The notes beneath the pieces were generated by a model. It searched no databases. It was given only the letters and a program-made list of their open reading frames with translations, and was not told where the DNA came from. From IMG/VR virus record IMGVR_UViG_3300037755_000349, positions 1 through 64,000 of that record: a DNA stretch of 64,000 nt; one strand, given 5' to 3'. This document shows, in pieces, positions 23,166-64,000 of the stretch; position 1 is the first letter of the stretch; every line of letters starts with the position of its first letter. Both the position numbers and the translations under genes were made by a program. This stretch comes from a virus. Lineage: Duplodnaviria; Caudoviricetes.

Positions 23166-23240
23166 TGCGGGGTGGCGCAGCGGCAGCGCGCCGGGCTCAT
23201 AACCCGGAGGTCGCAGGTTCAAATCCTGTCCCCGCAACCA
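23166..23240 (+). tRNA. tRNA-Met(CAT), initiator-like anticodon arm, encoded CCA
   Basis: Full cloverleaf: GCGGGG/CCCCGC acceptor, CCGGG-CTCATAA-CCCGG anticodon arm, GGTTCAAATCC T-arm, ACCA end. Confidence 0.93.
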
Positions 23241-37121: not shown

Positions 37122-38540
37122 ATGCTGCAACAACCACAGAATTCCTCGATGCAGGAGTACATGGCGCAGTACGGTGAGCGCTTGAACGCGCTACTTGGTT
37201 ACGCGCCGCAACCATCGAATCTCGGTGCTGCGCAGTCCGGCGAGAGTCCAATGGTGGACGAGATGGGCGCCGCGCCAGCGTCGCCAGGCATGAATCTCGG
37301 CGCCGAACAGGCACAGCCGATGATGCAGCAACAGCCCGCGGCAGCTCCGGCCGCGCCGAGTGCTGCGCCGGCGCCGACTACTCCGCCCATGCAGAAGAAC
37401 GAGAAGGGCCAGGTGGTGATCGAGTCGCGCCCCAAGGACTTCGACTTCGGTGTGAAGGATGACGATCTCAAGGATGTGAAGAGCGTCGGGGACCTGGTGC
37501 AGAAACTGCCCGAGGAGAAGGCGAACGCATACATGGATTGGTGGGAAGAGCGCTACGGGCAGGTCAATGGCAAGTACGACGCGATGCTGGCGGAGCTTGG
37601 CCAGCGTCCCGATCCTAAGTCTCGCGATCTATCGCGCAAGGACAAATTCACGCTGCTGATGGAGTTCGGCCTCAATTTGATGAAGCACTCTCAGCAGGGC
37701 GGCGATCGAACTGGCGCAATGGGAGCCGCTCTGCACGATACCGTGCGAGGTGATCAAGCACGCCGGGAGAAGGACTTCGAGCGGCATCGGAGTCTGAGTG
37801 GCGAAATCGAAGGGCGGCGGCAGCAAGACCTCAAGGCGATCGGCACGCGCGGAGATGCGATGGTCGCGTCGCAAAACCTTGGCGCTGCCGCTGCCAAAGA
37901 AGGCCGCGAAGCGACCGAGTTCGCCGAGCGCGACGAGGAAGTCAAGAACATCGTCTATGGCGATGAGGGTGTCGTCGGTGTTACTCGCAAGGGTGAGGGG
38001 CGTACCGTCACCGATGAGACCGGCCGCGCCGTCAGATCCACACTCGGCATTGCTCGCGGATCTCGCGGTAGTGGCCGCGGTGCTGGCGGCTATGCGCCGC
38101 ATAACATTGAGAAGCTCGCGACTTTTTACTCCAAGACCTACGACATCCCGATCGAGGTTGCCACCAACATCGCGCGCTCGGAAAAGAACGCGACCGATCC
38201 GTTCAAGATGTATTCGACCATCTTGAACGGACAGCTTCGGCAATACATGCCGGCCGACGAGGCGGCGAGGGTAGCGAAGGAGTTGGTCGAGGGTGCGTTC
38301 GGTGAGGGCGCGCTCGACAGCAAGCCAGGTGCGCCGATCGAGCGACCAGGTGGCGGCGGCAACCTCGGCGCCGCGGAGCCCGCCGCCGCGCCTGCACCTG
38401 GTTCGAGTCTCGGCAGCTCCGCTCCGCCGGCAAATCTGCTCAAGTCGGGCAAGGTGACCACGATCCGAAACAAGCGCACTGGCGCAGAGGAGAAGTGGAC
38501 GCTCGATGAGACCGGACAGCCCAAGCGAGTACTACGCTGA
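37122..38540 (+). CDS. Internal virion/ejection protein
   Basis: Pro/Ala/Gln-rich ends with a helical core; position between pilot and giant protein. Confidence 0.55.
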   Translation: MLQQPQNSSMQEYMAQYGERLNALLGYAPQPSNLGAAQSGESPMVDEMGAAPASPGMNLGAEQAQPMMQQQPAAAPAAPSAAPAPTTPPMQKNEKGQVVIESRPKDFDFGVKDDDLKDVKSVGDLVQKLPEEKANAYMDWWEERYGQVNGKYDAMLAELGQRPDPKSRDLSRKDKFTLLMEFGLNLMKHSQQGGDRTGAMGAALHDTVRGDQARREKDFERHRSLSGEIEGRRQQDLKAIGTRGDAMVASQNLGAAAAKEGREATEFAERDEEVKNIVYGDEGVVGVTRKGEGRTVTDETGRAVRSTLGIARGSRGSGRGAGGYAPHNIEKLATFYSKTYDIPIEVATNIARSEKNATDPFKMYSTILNGQLRQYMPADEAARVAKELVEGAFGEGALDSKPGAPIERPGGGGNLGAAEPAAAPAPGSSLGSSAPPANLLKSGKVTTIRNKRTGAEEKWTLDETGQPKRVLR

Positions 38541-38541
38541 C

Positions 38542-41500
38542 ATGGCAACGAACGAATGGGAGGTCATCGGCGAAGAGCCGGATGTACTGCAACCTGCAAC
38601 ACAACCGACTGTAGCGCCGCAGAATGTGTTGCAGGGTGCAGTACAAAATGATTGGGAGGTTCTAGGCGAGGAGGACCTCACGCCCGATGCACTGCTGCCT
38701 GGCGAGGCGTTGAATCTCGCGACAGCGCCCGATGAGCAGTTCGGTCTCGATGAGACACAGCGGAGCATGGCGAGTGCACTCACGCGCGCCGGCGCCGATC
38801 AAATCATCGACGATGTGGCGAGCCGGGAAATCTTGGCTGCACCGCCGCCGGCGCCTGGCCGTATCGAGCCCACCGCGCTCACGGCAACGCGCAGATTTCT
38901 CCCTGGCGGCAAGCAGATAGCCGAGCCCGTCGATCCGGACGTCGACCTGCGCGCGATGAAGCGCCTGCCGGGAAATATTGGCCGCAGCTCGAAGGCTCAG
39001 GTGAAGGAAGCGATCGCCGGCACACAGCGCCTGTTCGCCGACTTGCAGGCCAACATGGACATCGCGAAAGCGGAATCGTATCGCTCGTACCAGAGCGACG
39101 ATCCGCAAGTGCTGGCACAGCAGCAGGCCGCGGCCGGTGAAGCCGAGGAGCGCGCCGGCCACGCGGAACTTGCGCAGGGTCGAGCTGCTCGCACGACGCG
39201 ACGCGCGCAGGCCGAGGGGCAGGCCGCAATCCCCGCCGACGCCGGCGAGATCGAGCGAGCGATCCAAAGTGGCGTATCGAGCGCGGCGGTGACACTGCCG
39301 ATCGTGACGCTTGGCTCCGTGGTGCCTGGTGGCCAGGGTGCTGCGCTGGTAACGCTCGGTGGCATGACGGGCAGCGCACGCTACGGCGAGCTGCGCGCCG
39401 CGGGGCTCGATGAGGGTACGGCGGCGTTGAGCGCAGCAGCGCTCGGTGGCCTCGAAGGGCTCACCGAGAAAATCCCGTTGGGCACGCTGGCTAAGAAGTC
39501 GCCCTTTATCGAGAAGGCCACCGAGTTCCTGGTGCAGGACCTGCTCGGCGAGAACGTGTCCACCGTGGCGCAGATCGCGGACGACTACCGCCTGGGCCTG
39601 CGCGATGACGTGACGATGGCCGACGTGCAGCAAGCCATCAAGGAGACGAGCGCGGCGACGATCGCCGGCTCCGCCGCGCAGCTCACCGTGTCAGGCATCT
39701 TCGAACAGGCCCTCAACCGGGCGAACCAGAAGGCAATCGACCGCGAGGCCAAGGCGGGCATGCAGCGCCAGGAGCCGTTCATCTCCGAACCCGACCTGGC
39801 GGGCATCGGCGAGCTGGAGTACGAGGCGGCGCCGGCTGCTGCCGCGGGCGATCTGGAGGTAGTGGCCGAGGAACCCCTGGCGGCTGCCCCTGGCAGCGCT
39901 CAAGACGAGCTGGCCGCGCTGGAGGCCCTACGCAAGGGCGGAGCCACGCCCGAGCAGGAAGCGATCCTGGAGGGCCTGGGCCACCTGGTGCGAACCGAGA
40001 CCGGGACGCCAGTACTACTGCCATCGGGACGGCGTAGACTTACGGAGCTGAATCAACAGCTTGCGGATAGTCGCAGTGAAACAAAAAACCAGGCTCTCCC
40101 TCAGCCCGTTGCAGCAGGTGCTAAAGAAGCACCTGGATCGGCTCAACCCGGATTGGGCGAAGCGGCCGGGACCACACCGTCGCTCACAGAAGCAACTCAG
40201 GGAGCAGCGCGCGGCGTCCGTGTTGGTCGATCGCCGGCGCCTGGTGGTGAACGACAAGGTGAAAGTGTTGCTGCTGGAGAAGCCAACCTCGAAGACACGA
40301 TCCCAATCCCGCAGCAATACGAGCGGGTGATCCTGGAGTCGATCATCAAGGACGACGCGACGCCGGGGCAGATTGGTATCGCGATATCCCGAGGGTTTGC
40401 AAAGCGCCGCTCCGATGGCACCGCGACGCTGTTGCCGGCGGGCCGGCGGCGGCTGGTCGAACTGGAGTCAGGCCAGCCGCCGGCCGACGTTGAGGCGACG
40501 TTTGAGGGCGAGGAGCTGCGCCGAGCTGGCGATCTTCGCCGCACGCCGCGAGTGGAGGTTAAGCCGGCACAGGCGCGCAGCGGCAGCGTTCAGACGCCGC
40601 GTGGCGGCTTCACTGTGCACGTCGATGGCAAGCCGGTCGTCGAGCTTCCCGATGCGCAAGCCGCGCGCGAGGCCGCGGCCGGATTTGCGGCTGACGGGAC
40701 TTTTAAGACCACCGTCGCCGGGCAACCCGTGTCGGTCGACGTGACGCCTACGGACGCGCAGAAGGCGTCCGGCACCTATACCAAGGGTCACATTCGCTAC
40801 GAGGGTCTCCAGATCTCGATCGAAAATCCCAAAGGCTCTATTCGCTCTGGCGTGTCGGAAAGTGGGAGAAAGTGGAGCCGTGCGCTTGGAGCTGATTACG
40901 GGTACGTGCGCGGTTCCGAATCTGCTGACGGCGATCATGTCGATGTCTTCCTCGGTGATGCGACCAGCGACGTTGCGTACATCGTCGATCAGGTGAAAGC
41001 GGATGGCACTTTCGACGAGCACAAGGTGATGCTCGGCTACCCATCGCTTGAGGCTGCGACCGCAGCGTATCGAGCACAGTACCCAAAGGGATGGAAGGGA
41101 CTCGGTGCGATAACCCACATACCGATCGCGGACTTCAAAACGTGGGTGAAGTCTCCACAAGCGAAGCAACCCTACGCATGGAAACCTAAAGCGCAAGCTG
41201 TCGCCGCGGTTCCCTCGGCCGAACCAGCGCCTGAGCGCGCGAAGCTGCACAAGAAGATCTATCGCGGCACCGAGGCCGGCACGAAAGGAGCCGAAACGCG
41301 CGCTGCACCGCGAGGTGAATTGGGGCCGGGCATCTACTTCACGCCGGATGCAAAGCTCGCCGCGAGTTACGGCGGTGGCCCCACGGCGAGTATCGCGAAG
41401 GGCACTCGCGTGGTGCACACCGCGGAGCTGGCGCGCGATCTGAAGGCCGAGGAGATTGGCACACTCGAAGGCGGATCTCGCGACGGGGAGACTGCGCGCC

Positions 41501-44500
41501 TGGTCTCGAATGGCAAGGAGTTGTGGCGCGGCGAGTGGAACGCACGCAAGTCGCAAGAGGCGAACTATCAGGCGATGGTGAAGGCGATCAAAGGCGCCGG
41601 CCTGAAGATGATCGTGGGCGCCGATGACTCGATCGCAATCAACCAGGTCGCTGTAACAGATCCGAACATTCTGAAATTCGATCAGGCGAAGCTGCACAAG
41701 AAACGTCTTCCATTGGAAGAGCGAGCGGATGACGCCTCAGATCAGCAGCGAGCCACGTTGCGCGATATCGATACGGCGTCGGTTACTCCGCAATTTCAAT
41801 TGCGCGCCGCCACGGAGGATGTCTACGACACCGCGGATGCCCACTTCACCTCTTCGGAGGTTTTGAAGGGCGTTCATGATGTGCCGCTGAAAACTCTTGG
41901 CCTCACTGGCTACGACGATGCGAAATCTGTCGCGCGTATCGCGCGCCTGGCCGAGCAGATCAAGGAGAGCGGCGAGGTCTCGCCGATCATGGTGGGCATC
42001 GACCGCAATGGCGAAGCCTACGTGATGGAGGGCCAACATCGAGCGCGCGCGCTGCAACTACTTGGTAGTGACAGCATCCCGGCGAAAATCGTCTTGGACA
42101 CGACCGACGACGATGGCGTGCGGCTACATAAGAAACAAACCGAGACTGCCGCATTCAAGAAGTGGTTCGGCGATAGTAAGGTGGTCGATGCGGACGGCAA
42201 TCCTCAAGTCGTCTATCACGGCACCGGAAACCTGGAGGGGCTGAACGAATTCCGGCCCGAGCTAACTGGCCTCGGCAACGATCAAATCGGCAGCGGCTTT
42301 TACTTCACGACAAGCCAGGAGGAGGCAAGCGCTTACACAACAGCGCGCATGCCGAACGCAGGAACCAAGCTCGGCGGTGATCAATCACCAGGCATTGTTC
42401 CTGCCTACCTGAGCATCAAGAATCCGATCATCGTAAAAGGCCCCAATCTTCGCGATGTTGATGTGGATCTGTCGGCGAAGCAGGTAGAGGCAATTATCCG
42501 CCACGCGCCGCGGTTATTCGATGTTGAAAACACGCCGCTTCTTGATTGGCATGAGAATGCGAGCACACGCGTTACTCCGGCAATGGTCAGGGATGTAGCA
42601 AAGAAATACACCGGCCCGGCGCTTATCCAGATCGAACACGATTTTTTTGGTCGTGAAGGCGAGGCCACGAAGTTCCGCGAAGCGCTGCGCAAGGTGCTCG
42701 GGTATGACGGCGCGGTGATCGACTTCGGAACGAAGAAGCATTGGGTCGCCTGGTTTCCTGAGCAGATCAAAAGCGCGATCGGCAACCGCGGCACGTTCAA
42801 TCCGAAAGATCCGGATATTCGCTTTCATAATAAGCAGTCCAAAACCGACGCGTTCAGGCGCTGGTTCGGTGAAAGCAAAATCGTGGACGACGAAGGCAAC
42901 CCGCTCGTCGTGTACCACGGCACGGGCAGCGACTTCACCGAGTTCCAGCCTACCGATTACGGCTGGTATGGGTGGGGTTCTTACTTCACCAGCAACGAAA
43001 AATTCGCGAATGAGTTCGCCGAGGGAGCGGACGGCAATCCGAACGTGATGCCGGTGTATCTGGCGATCGAGCGGCCTTTCTACTTCACACCGAAGGACAA
43101 CGACACGCCAACCAACGTGCAGTTGCTCATGGCTGTCGGACACTCACGCCGCAAAGCCGAGAGCATCATCAATCGCGAAGGCGACGTGAACGTCCGGGTA
43201 TTCGACAAGCTGCAAGAGGAGGGGCACGACGGCATTGTCGTGCTCGAACCTGGGCGCACCGAGTACATCATCTTCGAGCCATCGCAGATTAAGAGCGCGA
43301 TCGGTAACACCGGCGCATTCGATCCTGCTAATCCGAACATTCTATTTCACAAGGCTTTCCACGGCTCGCCGTATCGCTTCCAGAAGTTCGTGCTCGATGA
43401 CAAGACCATCGGGACCGGCGAAGGCGCACACGCCTACGGATGGGGCCTGTACTTTGCCGAAAACGAAGCCGTTGCAAAGGACTATCAGCGCCGCCTGTCC
43501 GATTCCTCCGCGCATGTGCGCCTGAGCGTGAATGGCAAGGAATTGGAGGACGGACCCGAGCGCCATGGCGCCAGTCTCGTGGCCTTCAACGATCTGCGCG
43601 AGGTGCGCGCACTCGCGAAGCGCTGGCTCGCCGAGTATGAGAACGACCCCGGCATGAAGGAGACGGCGGAGCACGCCGGCCTAGCCGCGGCGGAGTATTG
43701 GCCACGGTTGAACAGCTTCGTGCAAAGCCACACGAAGAGGGACATCAAGGTGGCGCGCGGCTTGCTGTACAGCGTGGAGATCAACGATGCCGCGGTGAAA
43801 AACATGCTGGACTGGGATGTGACGTGGGAATCGCAACTCGACACGGTGAAGGAGACGCTGCGCAAGGCAGGCGTGTTCAAACGCTACAAGGCGAACCTGA
43901 GCAACTACGGCACGCCCATGCAAACGCGCAATCGCAAGATGCGCGGGGAGAGCATCTACGCGTTCCTGAGCATGGAGAAGGGCGGCGACCAAGCGGCCTC
44001 GAAGTATCTCTCCTCGCTCGGCATCCACGGCCTGCGATACAAGGACGAAGGATCGAGAGGCAAACGCGGCGGCACACGCAACATCGTGGTGTTCGACGAC
44101 TCGATCATCACTGTGACGCACATCGATGGCTCGCCGGTCACGGCGCAGGAGCGCACCGATGCGATCGGTCCGCTGTTCAGCCGCGTCAACACCAACGCGA
44201 ATGAGAGCAGGTATCGCGCGATCACGGGCACACCCCGCGAGCAGCGCTCCGCGCAAGTGCGCACGGAAGTGAACCGCGTGCTGCGCAACTTCCCCGGCGC
44301 ATCGGCCAACGTGGTGCAGACTTTCAACGAGCTGCCCAACGACGTGCGCGCGCGTGTGATCGCCGCCGGCGGCCTCGATGAGAAAGGCAACCCCGCGGTC
44401 GATGCGTTCTACGACCCGCCAACCGGCCAGGTGTATTTCATCGCGAACGAGATCGAGTCGATCGACAGCATCGAGTCGTTGTTCCTGCACGAGTATGTCG

Positions 44501-47500
44501 CGCACAAGGGCCTGGTCGGCATGCTCGATACGGCAAAGCGTGACGAAATTCTCAACGGCATTGCACGCGACCTGCCCGACCTGGTGCGGCAGAAGGCGGC
44601 CGATTACGGCTATCGCTTTCACGTTCCTGCTGAACGACGAGTCGCGGCCGAGGAGGTCGTCGCTGAGATGGCGGAGACTTTCTTGCGAGGTCGGGATCTG
44701 CCGGCGAAGCAGAAGGGTATTCTCGATCGCATAATTCAGGCGATCGCTGATGTCTTGCGGCGCATAGGTCTGCGCAAATACGACGAGCAATTCATCGCCT
44801 CGTTACTCACGGATCTGCACCGCTATGCGCGCGAAGGCCATGCTCGGAAGGAAACCGCTGAGCCGTATCGCGCACGCGCAAGTACGGCCCCTGCGTTCCC
44901 TGATTGGGATGATTCGAACGCCTCCGAGGTCGTCCCCAACTTCCAGGACTATGTGGATCGCGCGCGCCTGCATCTCTCCGGGAAGAGTGAAGAGGAGATC
45001 TATTCCTATGCGCTGAAGCAGTTCGACGAACGGCAACAGCTCTGGCAGTGGGAGGGATTCTTCGAGGGCGGGCACGTCCTTGTGCGCGGGACACAGGCCG
45101 GTGGCTACGATCTCTACGTCAACGATGCGCTCATCGTCCCGGATGACGGCGGAAACTACCCGAACCTACAGCTCGCACAAGCGGCAGCTCGGGTACTCGT
45201 GGCGGAGGAGGGTGGAGTCTCCGACGCCGAGGCTGAGCGCATCCTCAACGCAGTGCCATTAAGCGCGGACCTGCGCGTCAAGTTCCATCGTAAACCGTTC
45301 TTCTCGCAGCTCGCCGTGCGGCTGTCGGAGCTGCGCCTACAGAAGGCGCCGGCGTCCCAGTGGCGCGGCGTCATCGCGAACCTCACCGGCAAGGGCGTGA
45401 GCCCCGAAGAGATCGAGTGGCTCGGGATCAACGAGTGGCTCGCCGAGCAGGATGGCAAGGTCACGAAGGAGCAGGTACTGCAATACGTGCGCGCCAACCA
45501 AGTGCAGATCCAAGAGGTCGTGAAGAGCGCCTTTACCAAGGAAACCATTGACGAGGCAGTCACTGCTATTGACCGCGCTCTCGGCACTTTTACGGACTGG
45601 ATCACGCCTGGTGATCTTGATTATTACGATCGCGTCGAGCCGTCCGTCGATAAGGATAAGTTCACGACCTATGCTCGTACCGCAAAGGGCGAGCGCATCG
45701 ACATGACCGTGAAAGTCACAGACGTGGATTCCCAAGATTGGAACGATGGCGGATGGGTTAACGCGACCGTCACTCTCGCAGATGGTCGCAGCGCGGAGGC
45801 CGGCGCATGGTTCAGTTATCGCCGCGGCACCCTTGAGATTGATCCTTATGGGCTTGGCGAGTGGCGCGGTGATGAATTCTCAGAGGATGAGGTTGATGCT
45901 ATCAAAGAGGCAATCGGCGAGATCGCCTTGTCCGAAAACACAGAGCTAATGGACACTGTCCAACACGCCTCGGACGAATTCGATAGCGATCTTATAAGAG
46001 CAAGAAACGAACTTTTGAGTGGCGACGTGGAGGCGGCTATTTCTGCACTTAAAGACGCGGCCCGCACAGAGCGCGTATACGGCGATGATGTAACCGTTAG
46101 CCCGATTGTAGATCTACTCACCGAGGATGAGGGATCTATCAAGTATGAAGACTGGAAGCTACCGGGCGGCGAGAATTATCGCGAACTGTTGCTGACGCTG
46201 CCGCCAAAGAAAGATCTGCCGGAGGAATTCAAGGCGGTGGAGATAGGCGAAGGCCGATGGGCCGTGTTCGGTCCTGGCCCGCAAGGCGCGAATCGATACG
46301 GTTCCGGCACCACGCGCGAGGAAGCGATCGAATCCTTCGTCGGTCACGGCCACACCGGGGCGTTCATCTCAAAGCACTGGGCCGAGCCGAACATCCTCGC
46401 TCACGTGCGCTTCGATGAGCGCACCGACGCTGATGGCAAGCGCGTGCTGTTCATTGAGGAGATACAGAGCGATTGGCATCAAGCCGGCCGCAAGCACGGA
46501 TACAAAGGCGACTATGTTCCGCCGTCCACGGCTGATATCGAGCGGTACAACGAACTGCGCGCAAAGAGGGACATCACCAACACGGAAGATGCAGAGCTGA
46601 CCAAGCTGGAGAAGCTGATACGCCAGCACGATGACATGATCGCTAGACTGGTGCCGGATGCTCCCTTTAAAACATCATGGCCCGAGTTGGCGTTCAAGCG
46701 CATTTTGAAATGGGCTGTCGATGAAAACTTCGATCGCGTGACGTGGACCACCGGCGCGCAGCAGGCAGATCGATATGATCTGAGTAAAAAAGTAAAAGCG
46801 ATCGAGTACACGGCCTCGGGTCGGTTGATTGCCATGGGCATAAGTGGCAGTCCGGTAATGAATGAGGCGGTCCCAGAAGAAAAAATCGCTGACTATGTTG
46901 GCGAAGAGCTTGCCAAGAAGTTACTCGAACAACCCTTAGTTAAGGCAGGACCAGTGCACAGTCGTGTGTTGCGCGATGTGGATTTGAAGATGGGCGGCGA
47001 GGGCATGGTTGAGTTCTACGACCAGATGCTGCCGCGCATCGCCGTCAAACTCACGAAGAAGTGGGGTGGCCGAGCATCGAAGACAAAGCTGCGCGGTGTC
47101 ACTCGCGAAGAGCGGATCAACGATCGCTACCAGATCCGCGAGACCTCCGCGGGCTGGACGCTGCTCGACGCGGCCGGCAATCCGCTTGCTGATCGACGCG
47201 CCTTCCGCAACGGGGCGGCGGCCGAGAAGTGGCTGGAGGAGAACGGCTACCTCGATGAGGAGGTTCACTCGCTGGATATCACCGACGACATACGCGAGGT
47301 CGCGCTCGGCGGCCTGCCGATGTTCCATCGAAAGTCCATGGTCGGCGTGTTCCGCCGGCGCCAGGCGGTGCAGAACGGCACCTTTGACCTGGTCGAAGGG
47401 TCGCGCACCTCGCGCTGGTGGAACCTCCTGGTCTTCAAGGCGCAGGACCGTTTCTACGATCTGTTCCGGCTCAACGAGCAGGCGAAGATCTTCCGCCAGA

Positions 47501-50274
47501 TCGCGCAGCTCCCCGACTCGATGGACGCGTACCTGAAGGAGACGCTCTACCATGGTCGCGTAGAGGATCGCGTCAAAGAGTACGAGAAGCAGTTCGTCGA
47601 GCCACTGGTGAAGATGATCAAGGACTCCGGCTATACCTGGCAGCAGGTGGAGGATTACCTGTACGCGCGGCACGCGCCCGAGGCGAACGCGAGGCTCCTC
47701 ACGATCAACAACGGGAATCCGAACTTCCATTCCGGTATGACGGACGCCGAGGCCACGCAGGTGATGACGGCGCTCGGCGCTGCGGGCAACATCGCGAACC
47801 TGCAAGCGATCGGCGCTCATGTCGATGCAATGACGCAGTGGGAGCGCTCCACGCTGGTGCTGGAGGGCCTCGAAGACCAGGCCACCATCACCGAGTGGGA
47901 GAACACCTATGATCACTACGTCCCGCTCAAAGGGTGGGCGCACAACCCTGAACTTGCTGAAATGCCTCGTCGAGGCCGAGGCTTTGATACTGGTGGTCGG
48001 ACAACAAAAGACCGCACTGGCCGCACGTCTCGTGCGGGAAACATCCTCGCCAACATCGTCGCGCAAGCGCAGATGGCCGTCATCCGCGCGGAGAAGGCCA
48101 AAGTAGGCCGGGCGCTGCTGGAGTTCGTGAAAGCGAACCCGGCGCCGCGGCTATACGAGGTCAACCAGGTCGAGTACCACCGCTACATCGACTCGGGCAC
48201 GGGCCTGGTGCGCCAGGGCGTGAACCCGCAGTACAAGCTCGCCGACAACGTGGTGCGCGTGCGCATGGCCGGCAAGGATGAGCACATCGTGTTCAACCCC
48301 AACGAGCCGCAGATGCAGCGCCTGGCGACCGCGATGAAGAACCTCTCGGCCACCGAGATGGGCCTGATCCTGTCGTTCCTGCACGGGATCAACCGCTACC
48401 TCTCGACGATCAACACCTCGCTGAATCCCGAGTTCGTGATCTCCAACGCGCTGCGTGACTTGCAGACCGCTGGCATCAACTTGCAAAGCACCGACCTGAA
48501 GGGCCAGGCGCTCGCGATCATGAGCCAGTGGCGCCATGCCTGGAAGGCGATCCGTCAGGCCGAAGCCGGCAACACGACGCACGCGTGGGCGCCGTGGTGG
48601 GATCGCTTCAAGAAGGCCGGCGCGAAAACCGGGTGGATTCAGCACTACGGCACGCCGGTGGACATCGAGAAAAAACTTCAAAAGGAAATCAACCGGCACG
48701 GTGTGGTGGGCAACGCGGCCAAGGGGATCGAGGTGACGCTCGGCTGGATCGAGCGGCAGAACCTGGCGGTCGAGAACGCCATGCGTCTGGCCGCCTTCCG
48801 GGCTGCTGTCGAGGCTGGCATGTCGGACGAGCGCGCCGCGCAGATCGCGAAGAATCTCACCGTGAACTTCAACAAGCGCGGTGACCTGGGTATTGCACTG
48901 AACTCGTTCATCCTGTTCTACAACGCCGGCGTGCAGGGCACGGCAACGATCCTGCGTGCAGCAAAGAGCCCGCGGGCGCGCAAGTTCATGTATGGCCTGG
49001 TCGCGGCTGGCATCGTCATCGACATCATCAATCGCATGGTGGCGGGCGAGGACGATGATGACGAGAACCGCTACGACAAGATCCGCAGCTACGAGAAGGA
49101 GCGCAACATCATCGTGATGCTGCCGAAGGAGCAGCGCTTCACGCTGCCATCGGGCGATGAGATCGATCACCTGAAGATCCCGATGCCCTACGGGTACAAC
49201 TTTCTGTACTACACCGGAACGAAGATCGGCGGCGTGCTCGACTATCACACCATCGGCAACAAGCGCCGCTTCGAGCCGGCCGAAGATGCCGCGCAGGTGG
49301 TGGCCTCGTTCTTGGGCGCATTCAACCCGATCGGTGGGTTCGCCAATCCACTGGAGTCGATCACGGCGGTGGAGCAGTACATCCAACTGAAAGAAGAGCG
49401 AGCGTGGGACGGCCGCCCGCTCATGCCACCACAGCCGCAGTACGACATTCCGGTGCCGGACTCGCAACGCTTCTGGCGGTCCACCGGCAAGGGTGCGCGC
49501 GAGGTCACGGCTTGGCTCAACGAGCACACCGGTGGCACCGACGTAACGCCGGGCAAGATCGACATCTCGCCGGCGACGGTGGATTACTGGATTGACTTCG
49601 CCCTCGGTGGCAGCGGCCGGTTCATCTCCAACACGATCAATGCGACGCACGATATCGCGCTTGATCGCAAGGACCTGGACCTGGGCGAGGTGCCCTTCGT
49701 GCGCCGCGTGCTCGGGCAGACCGGGGAGCGCGATCGCCAGGAGCGGTTCTACACGCGCATGAACGAAGTGCAGTACGTGATCAAGGAGCGCGAGGTCGCG
49801 CGCGAGATGCGCCGCTTCGCGAAGACGCCCGAGGAGATGCAGCCCTACGAGGAGCGCAACGCATTCATCGATAAGCGCTACCCGATCGCGGCCAAGGTGG
49901 AGATGGAAGGCCGGCGCGCGGAGGCCAAGCTCAAGCAGCTCCGAGCTGGACGCAAGGCGCTCCAGAAACAGGAGGGCCGCATGGAGGAGAGCAAGCGGCT
50001 GGAGCGCATCGAGTCGATCGAGGCGGAGATGCGCGCCACGATGGACCAGTTCAATCGCTCCTGGAACGAGGCCGAGGACGCACAGCGCGGCGCCACCGAG
50101 ACGAAGGATCTGATCGGCCAGCTCGGACCGATCATCGACGGCAAGAACCGCCGCGACGCCGTGCGTGCGTTGCGTGAGGCGGGCAAGCCGGCGACAGCCG
50201 AGCTGCTCGCGGCACTGCCGACCACGCTTCGCACGCAGCTCCGCGAGCTGCTGGAGCAGGAAGCCGCCTCATGA
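38542..50274 (+). CDS. Giant polyvalent internal virion protein (~3,910 aa): InPase-like, ParB-like, four ART-like, metallopeptidase and LPD38-like domains
   Basis: ISIENPKGS..DGDHVDV..FDEHKVMLG; EGQHRARAL; YHGT..GFYF modules; HEYVAH; EEIQSDW; C-terminal KIPMPYGY..DISP. Confidence 0.85.
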   Translation: MATNEWEVIGEEPDVLQPATQPTVAPQNVLQGAVQNDWEVLGEEDLTPDALLPGEALNLATAPDEQFGLDETQRSMASALTRAGADQIIDDVASREILAAPPPAPGRIEPTALTATRRFLPGGKQIAEPVDPDVDLRAMKRLPGNIGRSSKAQVKEAIAGTQRLFADLQANMDIAKAESYRSYQSDDPQVLAQQQAAAGEAEERAGHAELAQGRAARTTRRAQAEGQAAIPADAGEIERAIQSGVSSAAVTLPIVTLGSVVPGGQGAALVTLGGMTGSARYGELRAAGLDEGTAALSAAALGGLEGLTEKIPLGTLAKKSPFIEKATEFLVQDLLGENVSTVAQIADDYRLGLRDDVTMADVQQAIKETSAATIAGSAAQLTVSGIFEQALNRANQKAIDREAKAGMQRQEPFISEPDLAGIGELEYEAAPAAAAGDLEVVAEEPLAAAPGSAQDELAALEALRKGGATPEQEAILEGLGHLVRTETGTPVLLPSGRRRLTELNQQLADSRSETKNQALPQPVAAGAKEAPGSAQPGLGEAAGTTPSLTEATQGAARGVRVGRSPAPGGERQGESVAAGEANLEDTIPIPQQYERVILESIIKDDATPGQIGIAISRGFAKRRSDGTATLLPAGRRRLVELESGQPPADVEATFEGEELRRAGDLRRTPRVEVKPAQARSGSVQTPRGGFTVHVDGKPVVELPDAQAAREAAAGFAADGTFKTTVAGQPVSVDVTPTDAQKASGTYTKGHIRYEGLQISIENPKGSIRSGVSESGRKWSRALGADYGYVRGSESADGDHVDVFLGDATSDVAYIVDQVKADGTFDEHKVMLGYPSLEAATAAYRAQYPKGWKGLGAITHIPIADFKTWVKSPQAKQPYAWKPKAQAVAAVPSAEPAPERAKLHKKIYRGTEAGTKGAETRAAPRGELGPGIYFTPDAKLAASYGGGPTASIAKGTRVVHTAELARDLKAEEIGTLEGGSRDGETARLVSNGKELWRGEWNARKSQEANYQAMVKAIKGAGLKMIVGADDSIAINQVAVTDPNILKFDQAKLHKKRLPLEERADDASDQQRATLRDIDTASVTPQFQLRAATEDVYDTADAHFTSSEVLKGVHDVPLKTLGLTGYDDAKSVARIARLAEQIKESGEVSPIMVGIDRNGEAYVMEGQHRARALQLLGSDSIPAKIVLDTTDDDGVRLHKKQTETAAFKKWFGDSKVVDADGNPQVVYHGTGNLEGLNEFRPELTGLGNDQIGSGFYFTTSQEEASAYTTARMPNAGTKLGGDQSPGIVPAYLSIKNPIIVKGPNLRDVDVDLSAKQVEAIIRHAPRLFDVENTPLLDWHENASTRVTPAMVRDVAKKYTGPALIQIEHDFFGREGEATKFREALRKVLGYDGAVIDFGTKKHWVAWFPEQIKSAIGNRGTFNPKDPDIRFHNKQSKTDAFRRWFGESKIVDDEGNPLVVYHGTGSDFTEFQPTDYGWYGWGSYFTSNEKFANEFAEGADGNPNVMPVYLAIERPFYFTPKDNDTPTNVQLLMAVGHSRRKAESIINREGDVNVRVFDKLQEEGHDGIVVLEPGRTEYIIFEPSQIKSAIGNTGAFDPANPNILFHKAFHGSPYRFQKFVLDDKTIGTGEGAHAYGWGLYFAENEAVAKDYQRRLSDSSAHVRLSVNGKELEDGPERHGASLVAFNDLREVRALAKRWLAEYENDPGMKETAEHAGLAAAEYWPRLNSFVQSHTKRDIKVARGLLYSVEINDAAVKNMLDWDVTWESQLDTVKETLRKAGVFKRYKANLSNYGTPMQTRNRKMRGESIYAFLSMEKGGDQAASKYLSSLGIHGLRYKDEGSRGKRGGTRNIVVFDDSIITVTHIDGSPVTAQERTDAIGPLFSRVNTNANESRYRAITGTPREQRSAQVRTEVNRVLRNFPGASANVVQTFNELPNDVRARVIAAGGLDEKGNPAVDAFYDPPTGQVYFIANEIESIDSIESLFLHEYVAHKGLVGMLDTAKRDEILNGIARDLPDLVRQKAADYGYRFHVPAERRVAAEEVVAEMAETFLRGRDLPAKQKGILDRIIQAIADVLRRIGLRKYDEQFIASLLTDLHRYAREGHARKETAEPYRARASTAPAFPDWDDSNASEVVPNFQDYVDRARLHLSGKSEEEIYSYALKQFDERQQLWQWEGFFEGGHVLVRGTQAGGYDLYVNDALIVPDDGGNYPNLQLAQAAARVLVAEEGGVSDAEAERILNAVPLSADLRVKFHRKPFFSQLAVRLSELRLQKAPASQWRGVIANLTGKGVSPEEIEWLGINEWLAEQDGKVTKEQVLQYVRANQVQIQEVVKSAFTKETIDEAVTAIDRALGTFTDWITPGDLDYYDRVEPSVDKDKFTTYARTAKGERIDMTVKVTDVDSQDWNDGGWVNATVTLADGRSAEAGAWFSYRRGTLEIDPYGLGEWRGDEFSEDEVDAIKEAIGEIALSENTELMDTVQHASDEFDSDLIRARNELLSGDVEAAISALKDAARTERVYGDDVTVSPIVDLLTEDEGSIKYEDWKLPGGENYRELLLTLPPKKDLPEEFKAVEIGEGRWAVFGPGPQGANRYGSGTTREEAIESFVGHGHTGAFISKHWAEPNILAHVRFDERTDADGKRVLFIEEIQSDWHQAGRKHGYKGDYVPPSTADIERYNELRAKRDITNTEDAELTKLEKLIRQHDDMIARLVPDAPFKTSWPELAFKRILKWAVDENFDRVTWTTGAQQADRYDLSKKVKAIEYTASGRLIAMGISGSPVMNEAVPEEKIADYVGEELAKKLLEQPLVKAGPVHSRVLRDVDLKMGGEGMVEFYDQMLPRIAVKLTKKWGGRASKTKLRGVTREERINDRYQIRETSAGWTLLDAAGNPLADRRAFRNGAAAEKWLEENGYLDEEVHSLDITDDIREVALGGLPMFHRKSMVGVFRRRQAVQNGTFDLVEGSRTSRWWNLLVFKAQDRFYDLFRLNEQAKIFRQIAQLPDSMDAYLKETLYHGRVEDRVKEYEKQFVEPLVKMIKDSGYTWQQVEDYLYARHAPEANARLLTINNGNPNFHSGMTDAEATQVMTALGAAGNIANLQAIGAHVDAMTQWERSTLVLEGLEDQATITEWENTYDHYVPLKGWAHNPELAEMPRRGRGFDTGGRTTKDRTGRTSRAGNILANIVAQAQMAVIRAEKAKVGRALLEFVKANPAPRLYEVNQVEYHRYIDSGTGLVRQGVNPQYKLADNVVRVRMAGKDEHIVFNPNEPQMQRLATAMKNLSATEMGLILSFLHGINRYLSTINTSLNPEFVISNALRDLQTAGINLQSTDLKGQALAIMSQWRHAWKAIRQAEAGNTTHAWAPWWDRFKKAGAKTGWIQHYGTPVDIEKKLQKEINRHGVVGNAAKGIEVTLGWIERQNLAVENAMRLAAFRAAVEAGMSDERAAQIAKNLTVNFNKRGDLGIALNSFILFYNAGVQGTATILRAAKSPRARKFMYGLVAAGIVIDIINRMVAGEDDDDENRYDKIRSYEKERNIIVMLPKEQRFTLPSGDEIDHLKIPMPYGYNFLYYTGTKIGGVLDYHTIGNKRRFEPAEDAAQVVASFLGAFNPIGGFANPLESITAVEQYIQLKEERAWDGRPLMPPQPQYDIPVPDSQRFWRSTGKGAREVTAWLNEHTGGTDVTPGKIDISPATVDYWIDFALGGSGRFISNTINATHDIALDRKDLDLGEVPFVRRVLGQTGERDRQERFYTRMNEVQYVIKEREVAREMRRFAKTPEEMQPYEERNAFIDKRYPIAAKVEMEGRRAEAKLKQLRAGRKALQKQEGRMEESKRLERIESIEAEMRATMDQFNRSWNEAEDAQRGATETKDLIGQLGPIIDGKNRRDAVRALREAGKPATAELLAALPTTLRTQLRELLEQEAAS
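41239..41702 (+). repeat. 17-bp exact direct repeat GCGAAGCTGCACAAGAA flanking one module of the giant gene
   Basis: Copies at 41239-41255 and 41686-41702, both encoding AKLHKK. Confidence 0.85.
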
Positions 50275-60168: not shown

Positions 60169-60651
60169 GTGGCAACAACGAAGAAAAAAGCAGCGAAAGC
60201 TGCAACGGTTGATTTGTTCGATGGGCTCGATGAGGGGGAGACGAAGGAGGTGATCGCACGCTTCCGACGCCTGGCGTTGAATCTTCGGAATATCGCAAGC
60301 GAGTTCACCGAGATCATCGAGATCCTCGAATCGCCGAAGCCGTCACTAGTGAGAACGCGCAAGGACGCCAACGATGAACCAGCGTTCAAATATCTCGTGC
60401 GCGTTCGCATCCCGGCGGACTTTTTCCTGACGAAGCGCATCATGGCGTACGCGGCCGACCAGGGGTTCACCCCGGCTGACACGAAGCGGCTCTTCGCCGA
60501 GATGAGCGAGTATTACAACCGCGTGGGCACGAAGTGGCAGGATTGGACCGCCGTCGCCTACAAGTGGTATCGCACCGAGGCCGCGCGCCGCAAGGACAAA
60601 GCGCCGCAAGGCCCGACGCGCACGAGCAAATCACTGCAAGAGTTCAAGTAG
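60169..60651 (+). CDS. Replication initiator/helicase-loader-like protein
   Basis: GGAGG RBS with GTG start; F..M..YY..GTKWQDWTA..KW.R C-terminal motif; directly before dnaB. Confidence 0.55.
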   Translation: MATTKKKAAKAATVDLFDGLDEGETKEVIARFRRLALNLRNIASEFTEIIEILESPKPSLVRTRKDANDEPAFKYLVRVRIPADFFLTKRIMAYAADQGFTPADTKRLFAEMSEYYNRVGTKWQDWTAVAYKWYRTEAARRKDKAPQGPTRTSKSLQEFK

Positions 60652-62081
60652 TGGCCGCCGCGATCGCCGCCGAGGAAGCGGTCCTCGGTGGTTTGATGCT
60701 GGATACTGCCCGGCACGCGGAGATCGACCTGGCGCCGGAGGACTTCACGACGCCTAAATACCAGTCGATTTATCGTGCCATCCGTGAGTGTATTCAGCAG
60801 CGTATCCAGGCCGATGTGGTGACAGTTTCGGAGATCTTGGATCGGATGGAGCCGGACGGTGGCAGTTGGTTGTCGTACTGCGCAAAAATTGTGACGGACA
60901 CGCCCTCGTCGGCGAACACGCGCGTCTACGCAGCGATCGTGAAGCGCTACTCAGACGCAACGCGGGCGAAGGGCATCGCGCATGCCATGATCGAGGACAT
61001 CGACCAGGACCCCGAGGCGCTGGATCGAGCGATCAAGGCGATGTTGCGCATGACTTCCTCGCAGCGCAGCCACGAGTGCATGGTCGGCGACACCCTCGGC
61101 GCGCTGGTGGATTACCTGGACTTCCGCGCGCAGAACAAGAACACAATCCCCGGCATGCTCACCGGCTTGCAGCGGCTCGACCGCTCGATCGGCGGCTTGC
61201 AGAAGGGGCATCTCATTGTGGTGGCCGCCAGGCCAGGTATGGGCAAGACCGCGCTCATGGGCGGCCTGCACATGGCGAACCGCAAAGTGCATACCGGGTG
61301 CATCTCGGCGGAGATGCCGCGCGACGAGTTGGTGCTGCGTATGGTGTCCTCGATGTCTGGGGTGGCGTTCACCGACCTGCGCATGGGCAACCTGCAAGAC
61401 CACGAGTGGTCACGGATCAATACGGCATTCGCGATGCTCAAGGCGATGCCGCTGCACATCAACGATCGCTCGGCGCCGACGATCGAGCAGATCTTGCGCC
61501 AGGCGCGGCAGTGGAAATACGAGCACGATATCCAGATGCTCTCGATGGATTACATCCAGCGCATCCCGACGCCAGGCGGAATTCAAAAACGCAACGAAGG
61601 GGTCGAGCACATCGTGCGCTCGCTCAAGGAATGCGCGCGCGATCTGGAGATCCCAGTCGTGGCGCTCTCAGCAGTATCGCGAGAGGCGGAGACGCGCGGC
61701 GACAAGCGTCCACTGATGAGCGACCTGCGCGACTCAGGCGCCATCGAGGCCGAGGCCGATGTGATCGTGACCGTTTACCGCGAAGAGGTGTACAGCGATG
61801 CAGACAACATCAAAGGCGTTGCCGAGCTTGCCGTCATCAAGAATCGGCACGGACCCCTCGGTCGAGTTACCGTCCACTACAACGGCCCCACCCTTACCTT
61901 TAGCGATTTTCGGGTGGATGGCGGAGATGATGGACCTGGCGGTGTTCCAGGGGGAGATGGAACTGCTCAACGCAGCATGGAGCTTGGACTCGGGCAGGAC
62001 GATCGAACTGCGACTCGTCGAACAACCGGGGCGCGAACACGTAAATCCGTTCAAAAAATATACGAAGAAGAGGGGCGGTAG
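60651..62081 (+). CDS. dnaB: Replicative DNA helicase DnaB
   Basis: AEEAVLGGLML, AARPGMGKT, SAEM, DYIQ, RPLMSDLRDSGAIEAEAD, KNRHGP. Confidence 0.95.
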   Translation: MAAAIAAEEAVLGGLMLDTARHAEIDLAPEDFTTPKYQSIYRAIRECIQQRIQADVVTVSEILDRMEPDGGSWLSYCAKIVTDTPSSANTRVYAAIVKRYSDATRAKGIAHAMIEDIDQDPEALDRAIKAMLRMTSSQRSHECMVGDTLGALVDYLDFRAQNKNTIPGMLTGLQRLDRSIGGLQKGHLIVVAARPGMGKTALMGGLHMANRKVHTGCISAEMPRDELVLRMVSSMSGVAFTDLRMGNLQDHEWSRINTAFAMLKAMPLHINDRSAPTIEQILRQARQWKYEHDIQMLSMDYIQRIPTPGGIQKRNEGVEHIVRSLKECARDLEIPVVALSAVSREAETRGDKRPLMSDLRDSGAIEAEADVIVTVYREEVYSDADNIKGVAELAVIKNRHGPLGRVTVHYNGPTLTFSDFRVDGGDDGPGGVPGGDGTAQRSMELGLGQDDRTATRRTTGARTRKSVQKIYEEEGR

Positions 62082-62634
62082 TAATGGGCAAATCTTCGAA
62101 TGCGCGATCGTGGTCGTGGAGACAGGCAGCGTCGCCTACAACGGCGGGCTGTGGCTCGCTGGATGGGGCGACACTTCGGATCGTGGGATGTGGGTGCGAT
62201 TTTGGCTCGATGAGGAGTCCGATCGTCATCCTTTTGCAGGATACGCAAAGCGGTCAACTGATCATCCGCTCGGCACGATGTTCATGGTGGTTATGGTTGC
62301 GCTCGATGACTCCGGCAATCCCCTCAATCCGCAAGTGGAGCATCTGGCTGGGGCGGTGGAGGCGCCGCGCAAGGGGCGCACCAATTCTCAGTGGGCTCAC
62401 CTCATCATCACCGGCCCGCGCTTCTGCCAGTGGTTGCGAGAGAAAGAGCGGGAGTTCACGCCGCGCATCAACAAACTGCATGGTGGCTGGACCCCTGAAC
62501 TCGCGCGCCGATACGTCGTGCGATACGTCCTGCAATCCGAAAGCCTCACCGTGATCGACCACGATCCTGACAAGCTGAAGATCTGGCACGAAAAAGTGCG
62601 TATCCCTTTCAGTCAATGGGCAGGAGAGATGTGA
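61918..62634 (+). CDS. Conserved-looking phage hypothetical protein overlapping the dnaB 3' end
   Basis: FQGEMEL..NPFK..LAGWGDT..HPFAG..VALDDSG.P. Confidence 0.6.
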   Translation: MAEMMDLAVFQGEMELLNAAWSLDSGRTIELRLVEQPGREHVNPFKKYTKKRGGSNGQIFECAIVVVETGSVAYNGGLWLAGWGDTSDRGMWVRFWLDEESDRHPFAGYAKRSTDHPLGTMFMVVMVALDDSGNPLNPQVEHLAGAVEAPRKGRTNSQWAHLIITGPRFCQWLREKEREFTPRINKLHGGWTPELARRYVVRYVLQSESLTVIDHDPDKLKIWHEKVRIPFSQWAGEM

Positions 62635-62942
62635 TGGACACAAAGCAAAAATTCAAAGCGATCCACGCTCTCGCGCGCGCGTCGATCATGCTCGATTACC
62701 AGGACAAGTTCTATGTGAGCCACGACGTGCACATGTACGGCGACGCCGGGCTGCACACCGAAGTGGGCATCGTCGGGCGCGGACCGATGCCGCACGATGC
62801 GATCGAAGCGCACTGGGAGCTGCTCACCAAGGCCACGCACGATAATCCGCTGCGCAAGATGGTAGGCGGCACCGAACGGGGGTATGTTTGGAACGGCTTT
62901 ATGTGGGAAGAGGTGTCTTTGCCGAGGAAATCGGCCAGTTAA
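62634..62942 (+). CDS. Hypothetical protein
   Basis: TGATG-coupled; AGGAG upstream. Confidence 0.55.
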   Translation: MDTKQKFKAIHALARASIMLDYQDKFYVSHDVHMYGDAGLHTEVGIVGRGPMPHDAIEAHWELLTKATHDNPLRKMVGGTERGYVWNGFMWEEVSLPRKSAS

Positions 62943-62955
62943 AACGAGGAAGCAA

Positions 62956-63078
62956 ATGATGATCGACAACGATGGCATCGAGGATCTGGGGAGCGTGACA
63001 GAGGAAACCAAGCAGACGGCACCCTGGCCGCCTTATTACTGGGATTGGTTGTACGGCTATGGAACCGAACCATGGTGA
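62956..63078 (+). CDS. 40-aa lasso-peptide-precursor-like peptide
   Basis: GAGGA RBS; leader IEDLGSVTEETK followed by aromatic/Pro-rich QTAPWPPYYWDWLYGYGTEPW. Confidence 0.6.
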   Translation: MMIDNDGIEDLGSVTEETKQTAPWPPYYWDWLYGYGTEPW

Positions 63079-63253
63079 TGCTGTGAAGCAGATCCAGATC
63101 ACGAAGGCATGAACTTGGACGGGCGACGATGCGGCTTCGGAGGTTGCGCCCGGCCGGCGGCGATCCGGCATCCATATGACCTCAGTGCGCGTTAGTCATG
63201 AGTGGCGCTCCGCTAATTAACCATGACAGTCCGCAGCGTGCCCTCCTTCACGC

Positions 63254-63598
63254 GTGGCGGACACCTACCCTTTGGAGAACAGCGTGGATTTGAAAAGCAC
63301 CCTGGAGTACTTGGCCGTCAACGCACCGGAAATCGGCCGCCTGCGCGAGCGCGGCGACAAGCTCGCCGGCAGAGTGTATCGCGCGTACCGGCACTGCTAC
63401 GACCATCGCACCGATGTGAAGGCGCAGAACGAATTGATCACGGTCGTGGAGGACTACATCCGCCGCGACTTGAACATCGCCGCGGCGAAGGATCTCGCCG
63501 ACCGTTACGGCCACAAGCACGTTGACGATCCGATCATCATTCCCGATCCGATAAAGGTGCAGCATGCCGTCCGTGACGCTCTTCGAAGGAGACATTGA
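63254..63598 (+). CDS. Hypothetical protein
   Basis: Helical ORF coupled to the next gene. Confidence 0.5.
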   Translation: MADTYPLENSVDLKSTLEYLAVNAPEIGRLRERGDKLAGRVYRAYRHCYDHRTDVKAQNELITVVEDYIRRDLNIAAAKDLADRYGHKHVDDPIIIPDPIKVQHAVRDALRRRH

Positions 63599-63906
63599 CG
63601 ATGTTTCGTAACCGGCGCCTGTTGGACCTGGCGCATCGGATCACGGAATGTACGATCAACATCCCCGGCTGCCACGGCCATGCACCGAACGGCTGCGAGC
63701 CGGCGCATTCAAATTGGCATGAACACGGGAAAGGGAAATCACTGAAGGCGCACGATTGTTTCTTCGCCGCGGCCTGTCATTCATGCCACGTTGAGTTAGA
63801 TCAGGGATCGCGGTACGCGCGAGAAGAAAAAAAAGAATTCTGGCAGCGCGGCCATGCCCGCACGCTGCTGATCTTGTGGGAACGTGGATGGATCAAAGTA
63901 ACCTGA
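63595..63906 (+). CDS. DUF1364/YbcO-like His-Me-finger nuclease
   Basis: ECTINIPGC..CEPAHSN..GKGKSLKAHD..AAACHSCH.ELD. Confidence 0.75.
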   Translation: MTMFRNRRLLDLAHRITECTINIPGCHGHAPNGCEPAHSNWHEHGKGKSLKAHDCFFAAACHSCHVELDQGSRYAREEKKEFWQRGHARTLLILWERGWIKVT

Positions 63907-64000
63907 TAGATCAACGCTTCGCGTCTTTGGTGGTCGTGAATCTCGCATTCATCCGACGCACGGGGCGCGCAAACGTCCGTTATTGGACGTGCAGATGTGA

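Follow-up and report, generated by a model that had tools for sequence, protein, structure and literature searches.

We analyzed a small open reading frame (ORF) at positions 62956-63078 (+) of IMGVR_UViG_3300037755_000349, a 72,067-bp IMG/VR virus record from a tailed phage, the first 64 kb of which form the window (the whole stretch of 64,000 nucleotides that was analyzed). We consider it probable that this ORF is a genuine lasso peptide precursor gene (A gene), which the phage has captured and kept without the protease (B) and cyclase (C) of lasso pathways, and whose product would be matured in trans by the B and C enzymes of the host. The original prediction, made from the letters of the window, had described a lasso-like precursor and offered three options: use of the host lasso machinery, a decoy for that machinery, or a non-canonical RiPP (a peptide made by the ribosome and then modified post-translationally) or signal peptide. 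Our analysis supports this interpretation, and of the three options use of the host machinery fits best, although none is proven. As the phage encodes neither B nor C and its precursor is homologous to precursors that lie beside such genes in bacteria, it most likely relies on host enzymes.

The phage ORF belongs to a family of lasso peptide precursors

The ORF comprises 40 codons, with a first ATG at 62956, a second ATG at 62959 and a TGA stop codon at 63076-63078 (+). A Shine-Dalgarno-like GAGGA at 62946-62950 (+) ends 5 nt ahead of the first ATG; this element and the stop codon were read directly from the sequence, and the ORF of 40 residues with its own ribosome-binding site is exactly as first proposed. 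Family members at other loci have AGGAG-like sites upstream as well. The acidic leader (residues 1-19, 62956-63012 (+)) ends in DLGSVTEETK, which contains the DLG...ET motif of the family and places Thr at position -2. It is followed by a predicted core of 21 residues (63013-63075 (+)) that starts with Gln1, offers Asp11 as acceptor and has an aromatic-rich tail (Trp12, Tyr14, Tyr16 and Trp21). These 21 residues past Lys19 include 4 Trp, 4 Tyr and 4 Pro, together with 1 Asp (position 11) and 1 Glu (position 19), so that leader and core both read as they had been described. The lasso peptide predicted from this core would have a mass of 2657.169 Da, with [M+2H]2+ at 1329.592, against 2675.180 for the linear core (a difference of 18.011 Da). 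The GC content at third codon positions is 0.70 by hand count, against a genome GC of 0.61, and in this the ORF resembles the real genes of the phage. Since the stop codon of the upstream gene lies at 62940-62942, the ORF is tightly placed in a same-strand operon. A longer ORF of 64 codons starting at 62884 was rejected: it shares sequence with the upstream gene, lacks a ribosome-binding site and adds residues that do not align with the family.

The phage peptide had no match in NCBIfam or PHROGs, and a word-indexed protein search with the single peptide returned only itself. An exhaustive phmmer search of 1.84 billion representatives recovered two relatives, P0003 and P0004, of 48 and 49 residues (E values of 1.9e-5 and 1.7e-4). 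When a leave-one-out profile was built from 17 relatives with the phage peptide excluded, the ORF scored 46.8 bits (E value of 1.7e-13), and the next best of 1,583 six-frame segments of the phage scored 3.8 bits. Judged by these scores, the ORF is not a chance frame and its family membership is secure. The phage peptide scored 13.6 bits against PF24178 (Subterisin; E value of 0.067), below the curated cut-off of 27. Among 20 family members, 15 matched PF24178 (best E value of 4.9e-5) and 14 matched the benenodin family NF033522 (best E value of 1.7e-6), matches that we read as below cut-off.

The family profile picked at least 402 protein clusters out of 5.8 billion; every one of them has a hypothetical annotation, and some derive from Steroidobacter metagenome-assembled genomes (MAGs) and from Peristeroidobacter agariperforans. 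The bacterial members occur mostly in Steroidobacteraceae. The member in cultured P. agariperforans (P0025), likewise annotated as hypothetical, may offer a laboratory source of matching B and C enzymes. This precursor family has no name and is undescribed apart from metanodin, a lasso peptide recovered from a soil metagenome and encoded by a Steroidobacterales-like A-B-C cluster (Negri et al., J Nat Prod 2025, PMC12670498). One row of the family alignment is L006, from a genome flagged as unpublished (G001); no conclusion rests on it.

Bacterial relatives of the phage precursor are encoded beside B and C genes

The original prediction had proposed to ask whether homologs lie beside lasso B and C genes, and we found that they do. 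At the loci of P0003 and P0004 (L004 and L005), the precursor is directly upstream of a PF13471 protein of 262-268 residues that has the Cys, His and Asp positions of lasso B proteins, and the gene after B has an N-terminus that matches cyclases from other clusters. A further relative belongs to an A-A-A-B-C locus, found on a contig of 29 kb, with a PF13471 protein (265 residues) and then a PF00733 protein (621 residues). With B proteins as bait we obtained six genome loci, five from Steroidobacter or Steroidobacteraceae MAGs and one from an Accumulibacter MAG; family precursors are just ahead of B in four of the six, and a fifth was found with a looser pattern. Members also adjoin B at L013 and L021 and C at L018, and at L151 a Gln1-type precursor is followed by B and C.

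We also searched metagenome contigs with a degenerate DNA pattern of the leader, which gave at least 80 loci with at least 61 plausible members. Among the members listed, 36 have B and/or C on the same locus, 10 have too little downstream sequence, and 15 have at least 700 bp downstream with no B or C. One of these 15 (L032) has a core of 10 residues and is probably a false member. Four others are on bacterial-looking contigs beside genes for TonB-dependent receptors, FecR or S9 peptidases; bacterial orphan members near genes for a TonB-dependent receptor, FecR or Peptidase_S9 were noted at L045, L063, L099, L059 and L100. Single Steroidobacteraceae genomes contain up to three members (L016, L017 and L020, in genomes G002 and G168), some beside B and C and some far from them. 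Because some bacterial members are far from any B or C gene, precursors that act in trans seem to exist in bacteria too. Two variants of the peptide also occur: in L017, Cys replaces Gln at position 1 and a second Cys is C-terminal, and L020:1492-1674(+), L063 (~4844(+)) and L100 (~644(-)) have, past the usual core, a long acidic C-terminal extension of about 20 residues beyond a ...G.G.[FY]PGWLE motif.

Leader motif, cleavage register and predicted ring size

Conservation of the leader motif, on which the lasso reading of the ORF had been made to depend, was clear in an alignment of 20 sequences (A3). In phage numbering, Asp10, Gly12, Glu17, Thr18 and Asp30 are invariant in all 20, and Leu11 and Gln20 are nearly so. 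Gln occupies core position 1 in 18 of the 20, and in the family only Cys or Glu replaces it. Thr at leader position -2 is the canonical rule for lasso precursors. Metanodin was shown by tandem mass spectrometry to begin with Asn after Thr-x, and a close relative of it has Gln at that place (PMC12670498). From the Thr-2 rule, metanodin and the conservation of Gln in the family, we predict that cleavage would occur after Lys19 and that Gln would be residue 1; the register first suggested, with Thr at -2, a core opening with Gln and Asp at 11, is thereby supported. A core start one or two residues past Gln, which would give rings of 9 or 8 residues in many members, was rejected: those positions are variable, and as they are often Pro, they cannot be the N-termini of rings.

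The phage peptide departs from common lasso rules at two points, having Gln rather than a small residue (Gly, Ala, Ser or Cys) at core position 1 and offering only Asp11 and Glu19, rather than an Asp or Glu at core position 7, 8 or 9, as acceptors. Its Asp11 aligns with the invariant Asp of the family. At least 48 distinct cores were collected from metagenomes, and the motif could be located automatically in 35 of them; there, the acceptor Asp occupies position 8, 9, 10 or 11 in 1, 6, 25 and 3 cases, respectively. The phage peptide, like its closest relatives, belongs to the Asp11 type. To our knowledge, the rings of characterized lasso peptides have 7-9 residues. The predicted rings of 10 or 11 residues would thus be an unusual trait of the whole family and not of the phage copy alone. 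Bulky tail residues are present (Trp12, Tyr14, Tyr16 and Trp21), which might act as plugs that lock the thread. As Gln1 and an acceptor mostly 10 residues away fall outside the rules used for genome mining, tools of the RODEO and antiSMASH type probably miss this precursor family.

The phage genome encodes no lasso maturation enzymes

That the window contains no maturation enzymes had been noted at the outset, and this holds for the entire 72-kb record. We found no match in it to PF00733 (the Asn-synthase cyclase), PF05402 (PqqD and the RiPP recognition element, RRE) or PF04055 (radical SAM), and a tblastn search of the phage with the B and C proteins of the family itself gave only E values above 0.5. 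A sub-threshold PF13471 signal of 11.5 bits at 19752-19907 was dismissed as noise, since a direct Pfam scan of the ORF did not reproduce it. An amidoligase acting as a hidden cyclase was also considered and rejected, as a search of the phage found none. The phage therefore does not encode B and C with its precursor; this is the point of the finding and gives no reason to doubt the homology.

Orphan lasso precursors recur in other phages

A first, narrow DNA pattern of the leader had no match in viral contigs, and no close copy of the exact phage gene was found in other viral contigs. A looser degenerate leader pattern identified members in three more IMG/VR records (L026, L027 and L028), of which L028 is rated 100% complete. 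No B or C was found on the whole records of these three, and the neighbors of their precursors are phage genes, for primase/helicase, terminase, portal and endolysin. At three phage loci the precursor is just upstream of the terminase gene, and at two of them replication genes precede it, a placement comparable to that in the studied phage. Among the 15 metagenome loci listed without B or C, two are again IMG/VR contigs and seven more have phage-type neighbors: a terminase and VapE at L057, a terminase at L080, a phage glucosyltransferase at L082, a ligase or amidoligase at L106 and L083, a polynucleotide kinase at L075 and an HNH endonuclease at L029. At least 10 further phage or phage-like contigs thus carry orphan members, or at least 11 with the studied phage. 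Beyond this gene, the examined parts of those contigs have almost nothing in common with the studied phage, so that carriage of such a gene is not the quirk of one lineage.

One subtype, marked by Cys at core position 2, a tail rich in Trp and Cys at the C-terminus, was found among the matches listed at eight loci, all eight of them phage or phage-like and none with B or C. These are L027:2320-2457(-), L029 (~823(-)), L057 (~2062(-)), L075 (~1218(-)), L080 (~2249(-)), L082 (~5030(-)), L083 (~2027(-)) and L106 (~1372(+)). As the differences within this subtype are mostly synonymous, its orphan lasso precursors seem to form a clade adapted to phages. At two of the loci, L106 and L083, genes for a COOH-NH2 ligase (phrog_3815), an amidoligase (phrog_7469) and a glutamine amidotransferase (L106:2612-6264(+) and L083:2-355(-)) are located about 1.2 kb downstream of the orphan precursor; as enzymes that form amide bonds, these might conceivably use the peptide as a substrate.

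Purifying selection on one phage-borne subtype and the age of the studied gene

Three copies in phage context, on contigs of differing GC, differ from one another by 16-21 synonymous and 1-3 non-synonymous changes over 42 codons, leader included, and another pair differs by 20 synonymous and 5 non-synonymous changes. Purifying selection on the phage-borne copies of one subtype is therefore clear. Conservation of the leader only makes sense if enzymes still read it. Aligned with P0003, its nearest relative, the studied peptide is identical at 20 of 31 residues, of which 14 are encoded by different codons. Because the DNA has strongly diverged while the protein has been kept, the gene is old, and its capture not recent.

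A Steroidobacteraceae-like host is suggested by the phage terminase

The large subunit of the phage terminase (912-2609 (+); phrog_38, E value of 3.7e-68) is 66% and 53% identical to proteins on contigs in two of 201 sampled Steroidobacteraceae genomes. Its best match elsewhere was 37% among 401 sampled Gammaproteobacteria and 40% among 50,697 phage records. The GC content of the phage (61.4%) compares with 59-63% at the Steroidobacteraceae loci. In each of the two genomes that gave these matches, a lasso B scores above the Pfam cut-off; one of them (L151) has the Gln1-type A-B-C cluster, the other B plus C. These circumstantial observations point to a Steroidobacteraceae-like bacterium as the probable host, which is coherent with the origin of the precursor in a Steroidobacteraceae lasso family.

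Genomic setting of the precursor gene

The phage record has direct terminal repeats, a CheckV completeness of 100% and the hallmark genes of a phage (terminase large subunit, virion structural protein, RecT, RecE-like exonucleases, DnaB and a YbcO/HNH nuclease); it is a complete tailed-phage genome. The precursor ORF lies within a plus-strand block that opens with a DnaB-like replicative helicase (60534-62081 (+); phrog_19, E value of 3.8e-88), the gene that marks the early or replication operon, and its place between replication and packaging genes is nin-like. Immediately upstream is a gene of unassigned function for a protein of 102-108 residues (62616-62942 (+)), which ends 13 nt before the precursor gene, and downstream in the nin-like region is a YbcO/HNH-type nuclease (63601-63906 (+); PF07102, 2.6e-9; phrog_131, 1.6e-25). 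A relative of the upstream protein, 31% identical and with a common C-terminal WNGFMWEE motif, is encoded at L003:2875-3306(+) on a viral contig of lower GC. The protein of the downstream neighbor had no relative in IMG/VR, and the DNA of positions 61798-64000 had no similarity to any of the 50,697 phage records. The 175-nt gap after the ORF was considered as a structured RNA and rejected, as its fold is no better than that of shuffled controls. No tyrosine integrase was found in the phage, and expression of the precursor should thus be confined to lytic infection.

Most large proteins of the structural region at 15060-38540 (+), among them those of 846, 389, 513, 414, 435 and 472 residues, have no Pfam match and mostly no PHROG match; a tRNA-Met (CAT) gene is found at 23166-23240 (+), inside the structural gene block, and a single open frame of 3,922 codons in the structural region occupies 38506-50274 (+). 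This phage lineage is poorly covered by current protein families.

A model of maturation in trans and its alternatives

In the model that we favor, the precursor would be transcribed with the early or replication operon of the phage. If the infected cell has a matching cluster of its own, the host B protein, an RRE-protease fusion with Cys, His and Asp positions, would bind the DLG...ET leader and cut after Lys19. The Asn-synthetase-like cyclase C of the host would then link the Gln1 alpha-amine with the Asp11 side chain, so that the aromatic tail becomes trapped in the ring, and a lasso peptide specified by the phage would be released at lysis.

Several points weigh against this model. The consensus scan found no promoter or terminator, and that the studied copy is translated and processed is itself something we infer. 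The leader of the phage departs from the family consensus at two positions, with Ser-Val for Asp-Ala, and since the predicted 11-residue ring lies outside the characterized range, its chemistry could differ. Purifying selection was measured on a different phage subtype from that of the studied gene. The host assignment derives solely from the likeness of the terminase to short contigs binned into MAGs, and we identified no genome with both the phage and a matching cluster. Finally, what a phage would gain from a secondary metabolite during an infection that is only lytic is not obvious. Many phages adsorb at the step of outer-membrane uptake, and the presence of bacterial orphan copies beside TonB-type genes leads us to guess at a target there, such that the phage would benefit through an action on TonB-dependent uptake systems.

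One alternative is that the gene is a neutral hitch-hiker, a fragment of a host cluster that entered by illegitimate recombination, has not yet been lost and does nothing for the phage. Small accessory ORFs are known to accumulate in the nin-like region of lambdoid phages, the exact gene lacks close copies in other viral contigs, and the one distant relative of the upstream gene (L003) has no precursor gene after it, all of which would fit such an origin. However, the frame is intact, has its own ribosome-binding site and the length typical of the family, and keeps every invariant family residue, at a DNA sequence far diverged from those of its nearest relatives; moreover, orphans recur on at least 10 other phage contigs, which are of different types, and one group of them shows clear purifying selection. 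We therefore regard this alternative as unlikely.

It is also unlikely, in our view, that the peptide is a decoy or competitive inhibitor, the leader of which binds host B and C and blocks production of a host lasso peptide (for example one that hinders the phage), whether or not the decoy is itself made into a product. All phage-borne copies keep the motif by which the leader is recognized, and the phage has no enzymes of its own, as a decoy would predict. Correlations connect host RiPPs with phage interactions (PMC11118758), and a lanthipeptide family is reported to have an anti-phage function (bioRxiv 10.1101/2024.06.26.600839). However, the core in phage copies is as conserved as the leader (acceptor Asp, aromatic tail and the 1-3 non-synonymous changes per 42 codons), which is more than a pure leader decoy would need, and the cores vary as much among phage copies as among bacterial ones, so that the identity of the product would seem to matter.

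A peptide that acts without lasso maturation, either as a linear small protein or signal or after modification by another, unrecognized phage or host enzyme that reuses a lasso-type leader, is likewise unlikely: Gln1 and Asp11 outside the canonical rules, the many large phage proteins without family assignment and the ligase, amidoligase and amidotransferase genes near the L106 and L083 orphans could be read in its favor, but the studied phage has no amidoligase, the conserved Thr-2 and acceptor Asp are what processing by B and C requires, and Gln1 with a distant Asp also occurs in members encoded directly before B and C, which makes it a lasso-family trait and no sign of another pathway.

Maturation in trans by host enzymes would have consequences beyond this phage. 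The precursors of RiPPs are usually regarded as inseparable from the enzymes of their pathways, and a virus that brings the substrate only would represent a minimal hijack of host secondary metabolism, in which one gene of 120 bp alters the product of a pathway. Recurrence in at least 11 contigs, together with a phage-only subtype under strong purifying selection, argues for adaptation and not accident. Tentatively, and as a possibility we would not yet expect to hold in full, phages that infect Steroidobacteraceae-like soil bacteria might routinely carry lone precursors that reprogram host B and C, the Gln1-Asp11 ring might be larger than any characterized, and the product might serve the phage, for example at the TonB-dependent receptors of neighboring cells (blocking, exclusion or killing of competitors). 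The bacterial family is chemically interesting in its own right, with its hypothetical clusters, Gln1 and an acceptor Asp mostly 10 residues away.

Comparison with known systems

In the literature searched we found no description of phage-borne stand-alone lasso precursors, and a lasso precursor in a recurring phage context without enzymes is new. The nearest studies concern entire clusters located on prophages (bioRxiv 10.1101/2020.10.01.322628) or correlations between host RiPPs and phages (PMC11118758). Class II lasso clusters of proteobacteria, of the astexin and caulosegnin type, include a lasso isopeptidase, a TonB-dependent receptor and FecIR. Bacterial orphan members of the present family resemble them in lying beside genes for a TonB-dependent receptor, FecR and Peptidase_S9, whereas the phage has none of those genes, and the link to uptake or catabolism comes from the neighborhood in other contigs only. 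Benenodin and subterisin precursors (NF033522 and PF24178) share a ...LG.....T-x leader ahead of the core; their core starts with Gly1, in contrast to Gln1 here, and their acceptor is at position 7-9, in contrast to an Asp at 8-11, mostly 10.

Metanodin, the nearest characterized case, which we liken to the phage peptide by description and not by sequence, comes from the same bacterial order and shares a PF13471 B protein, an Asn-synthase C protein, Thr at -2 and an amide residue at ring position 1, but has Asn1 and a precursor inside its cluster, whereas the phage has Gln1, Asp11 and no cluster. Published precedent for an amide residue at core position 1 is limited to this Asn1. The metanodin precursor was not called by antiSMASH (PMC12670498). 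Whole RiPP clusters are present on prophages, for example that of sublancin on SPbeta (bioRxiv 10.1101/2020.10.01.322628). SPbeta and the studied phage are alike in being phage genomes with a gene for a ribosomal peptide natural product; SPbeta, however, also has genes for modification, immunity and export, whereas the phage studied here has the precursor only.
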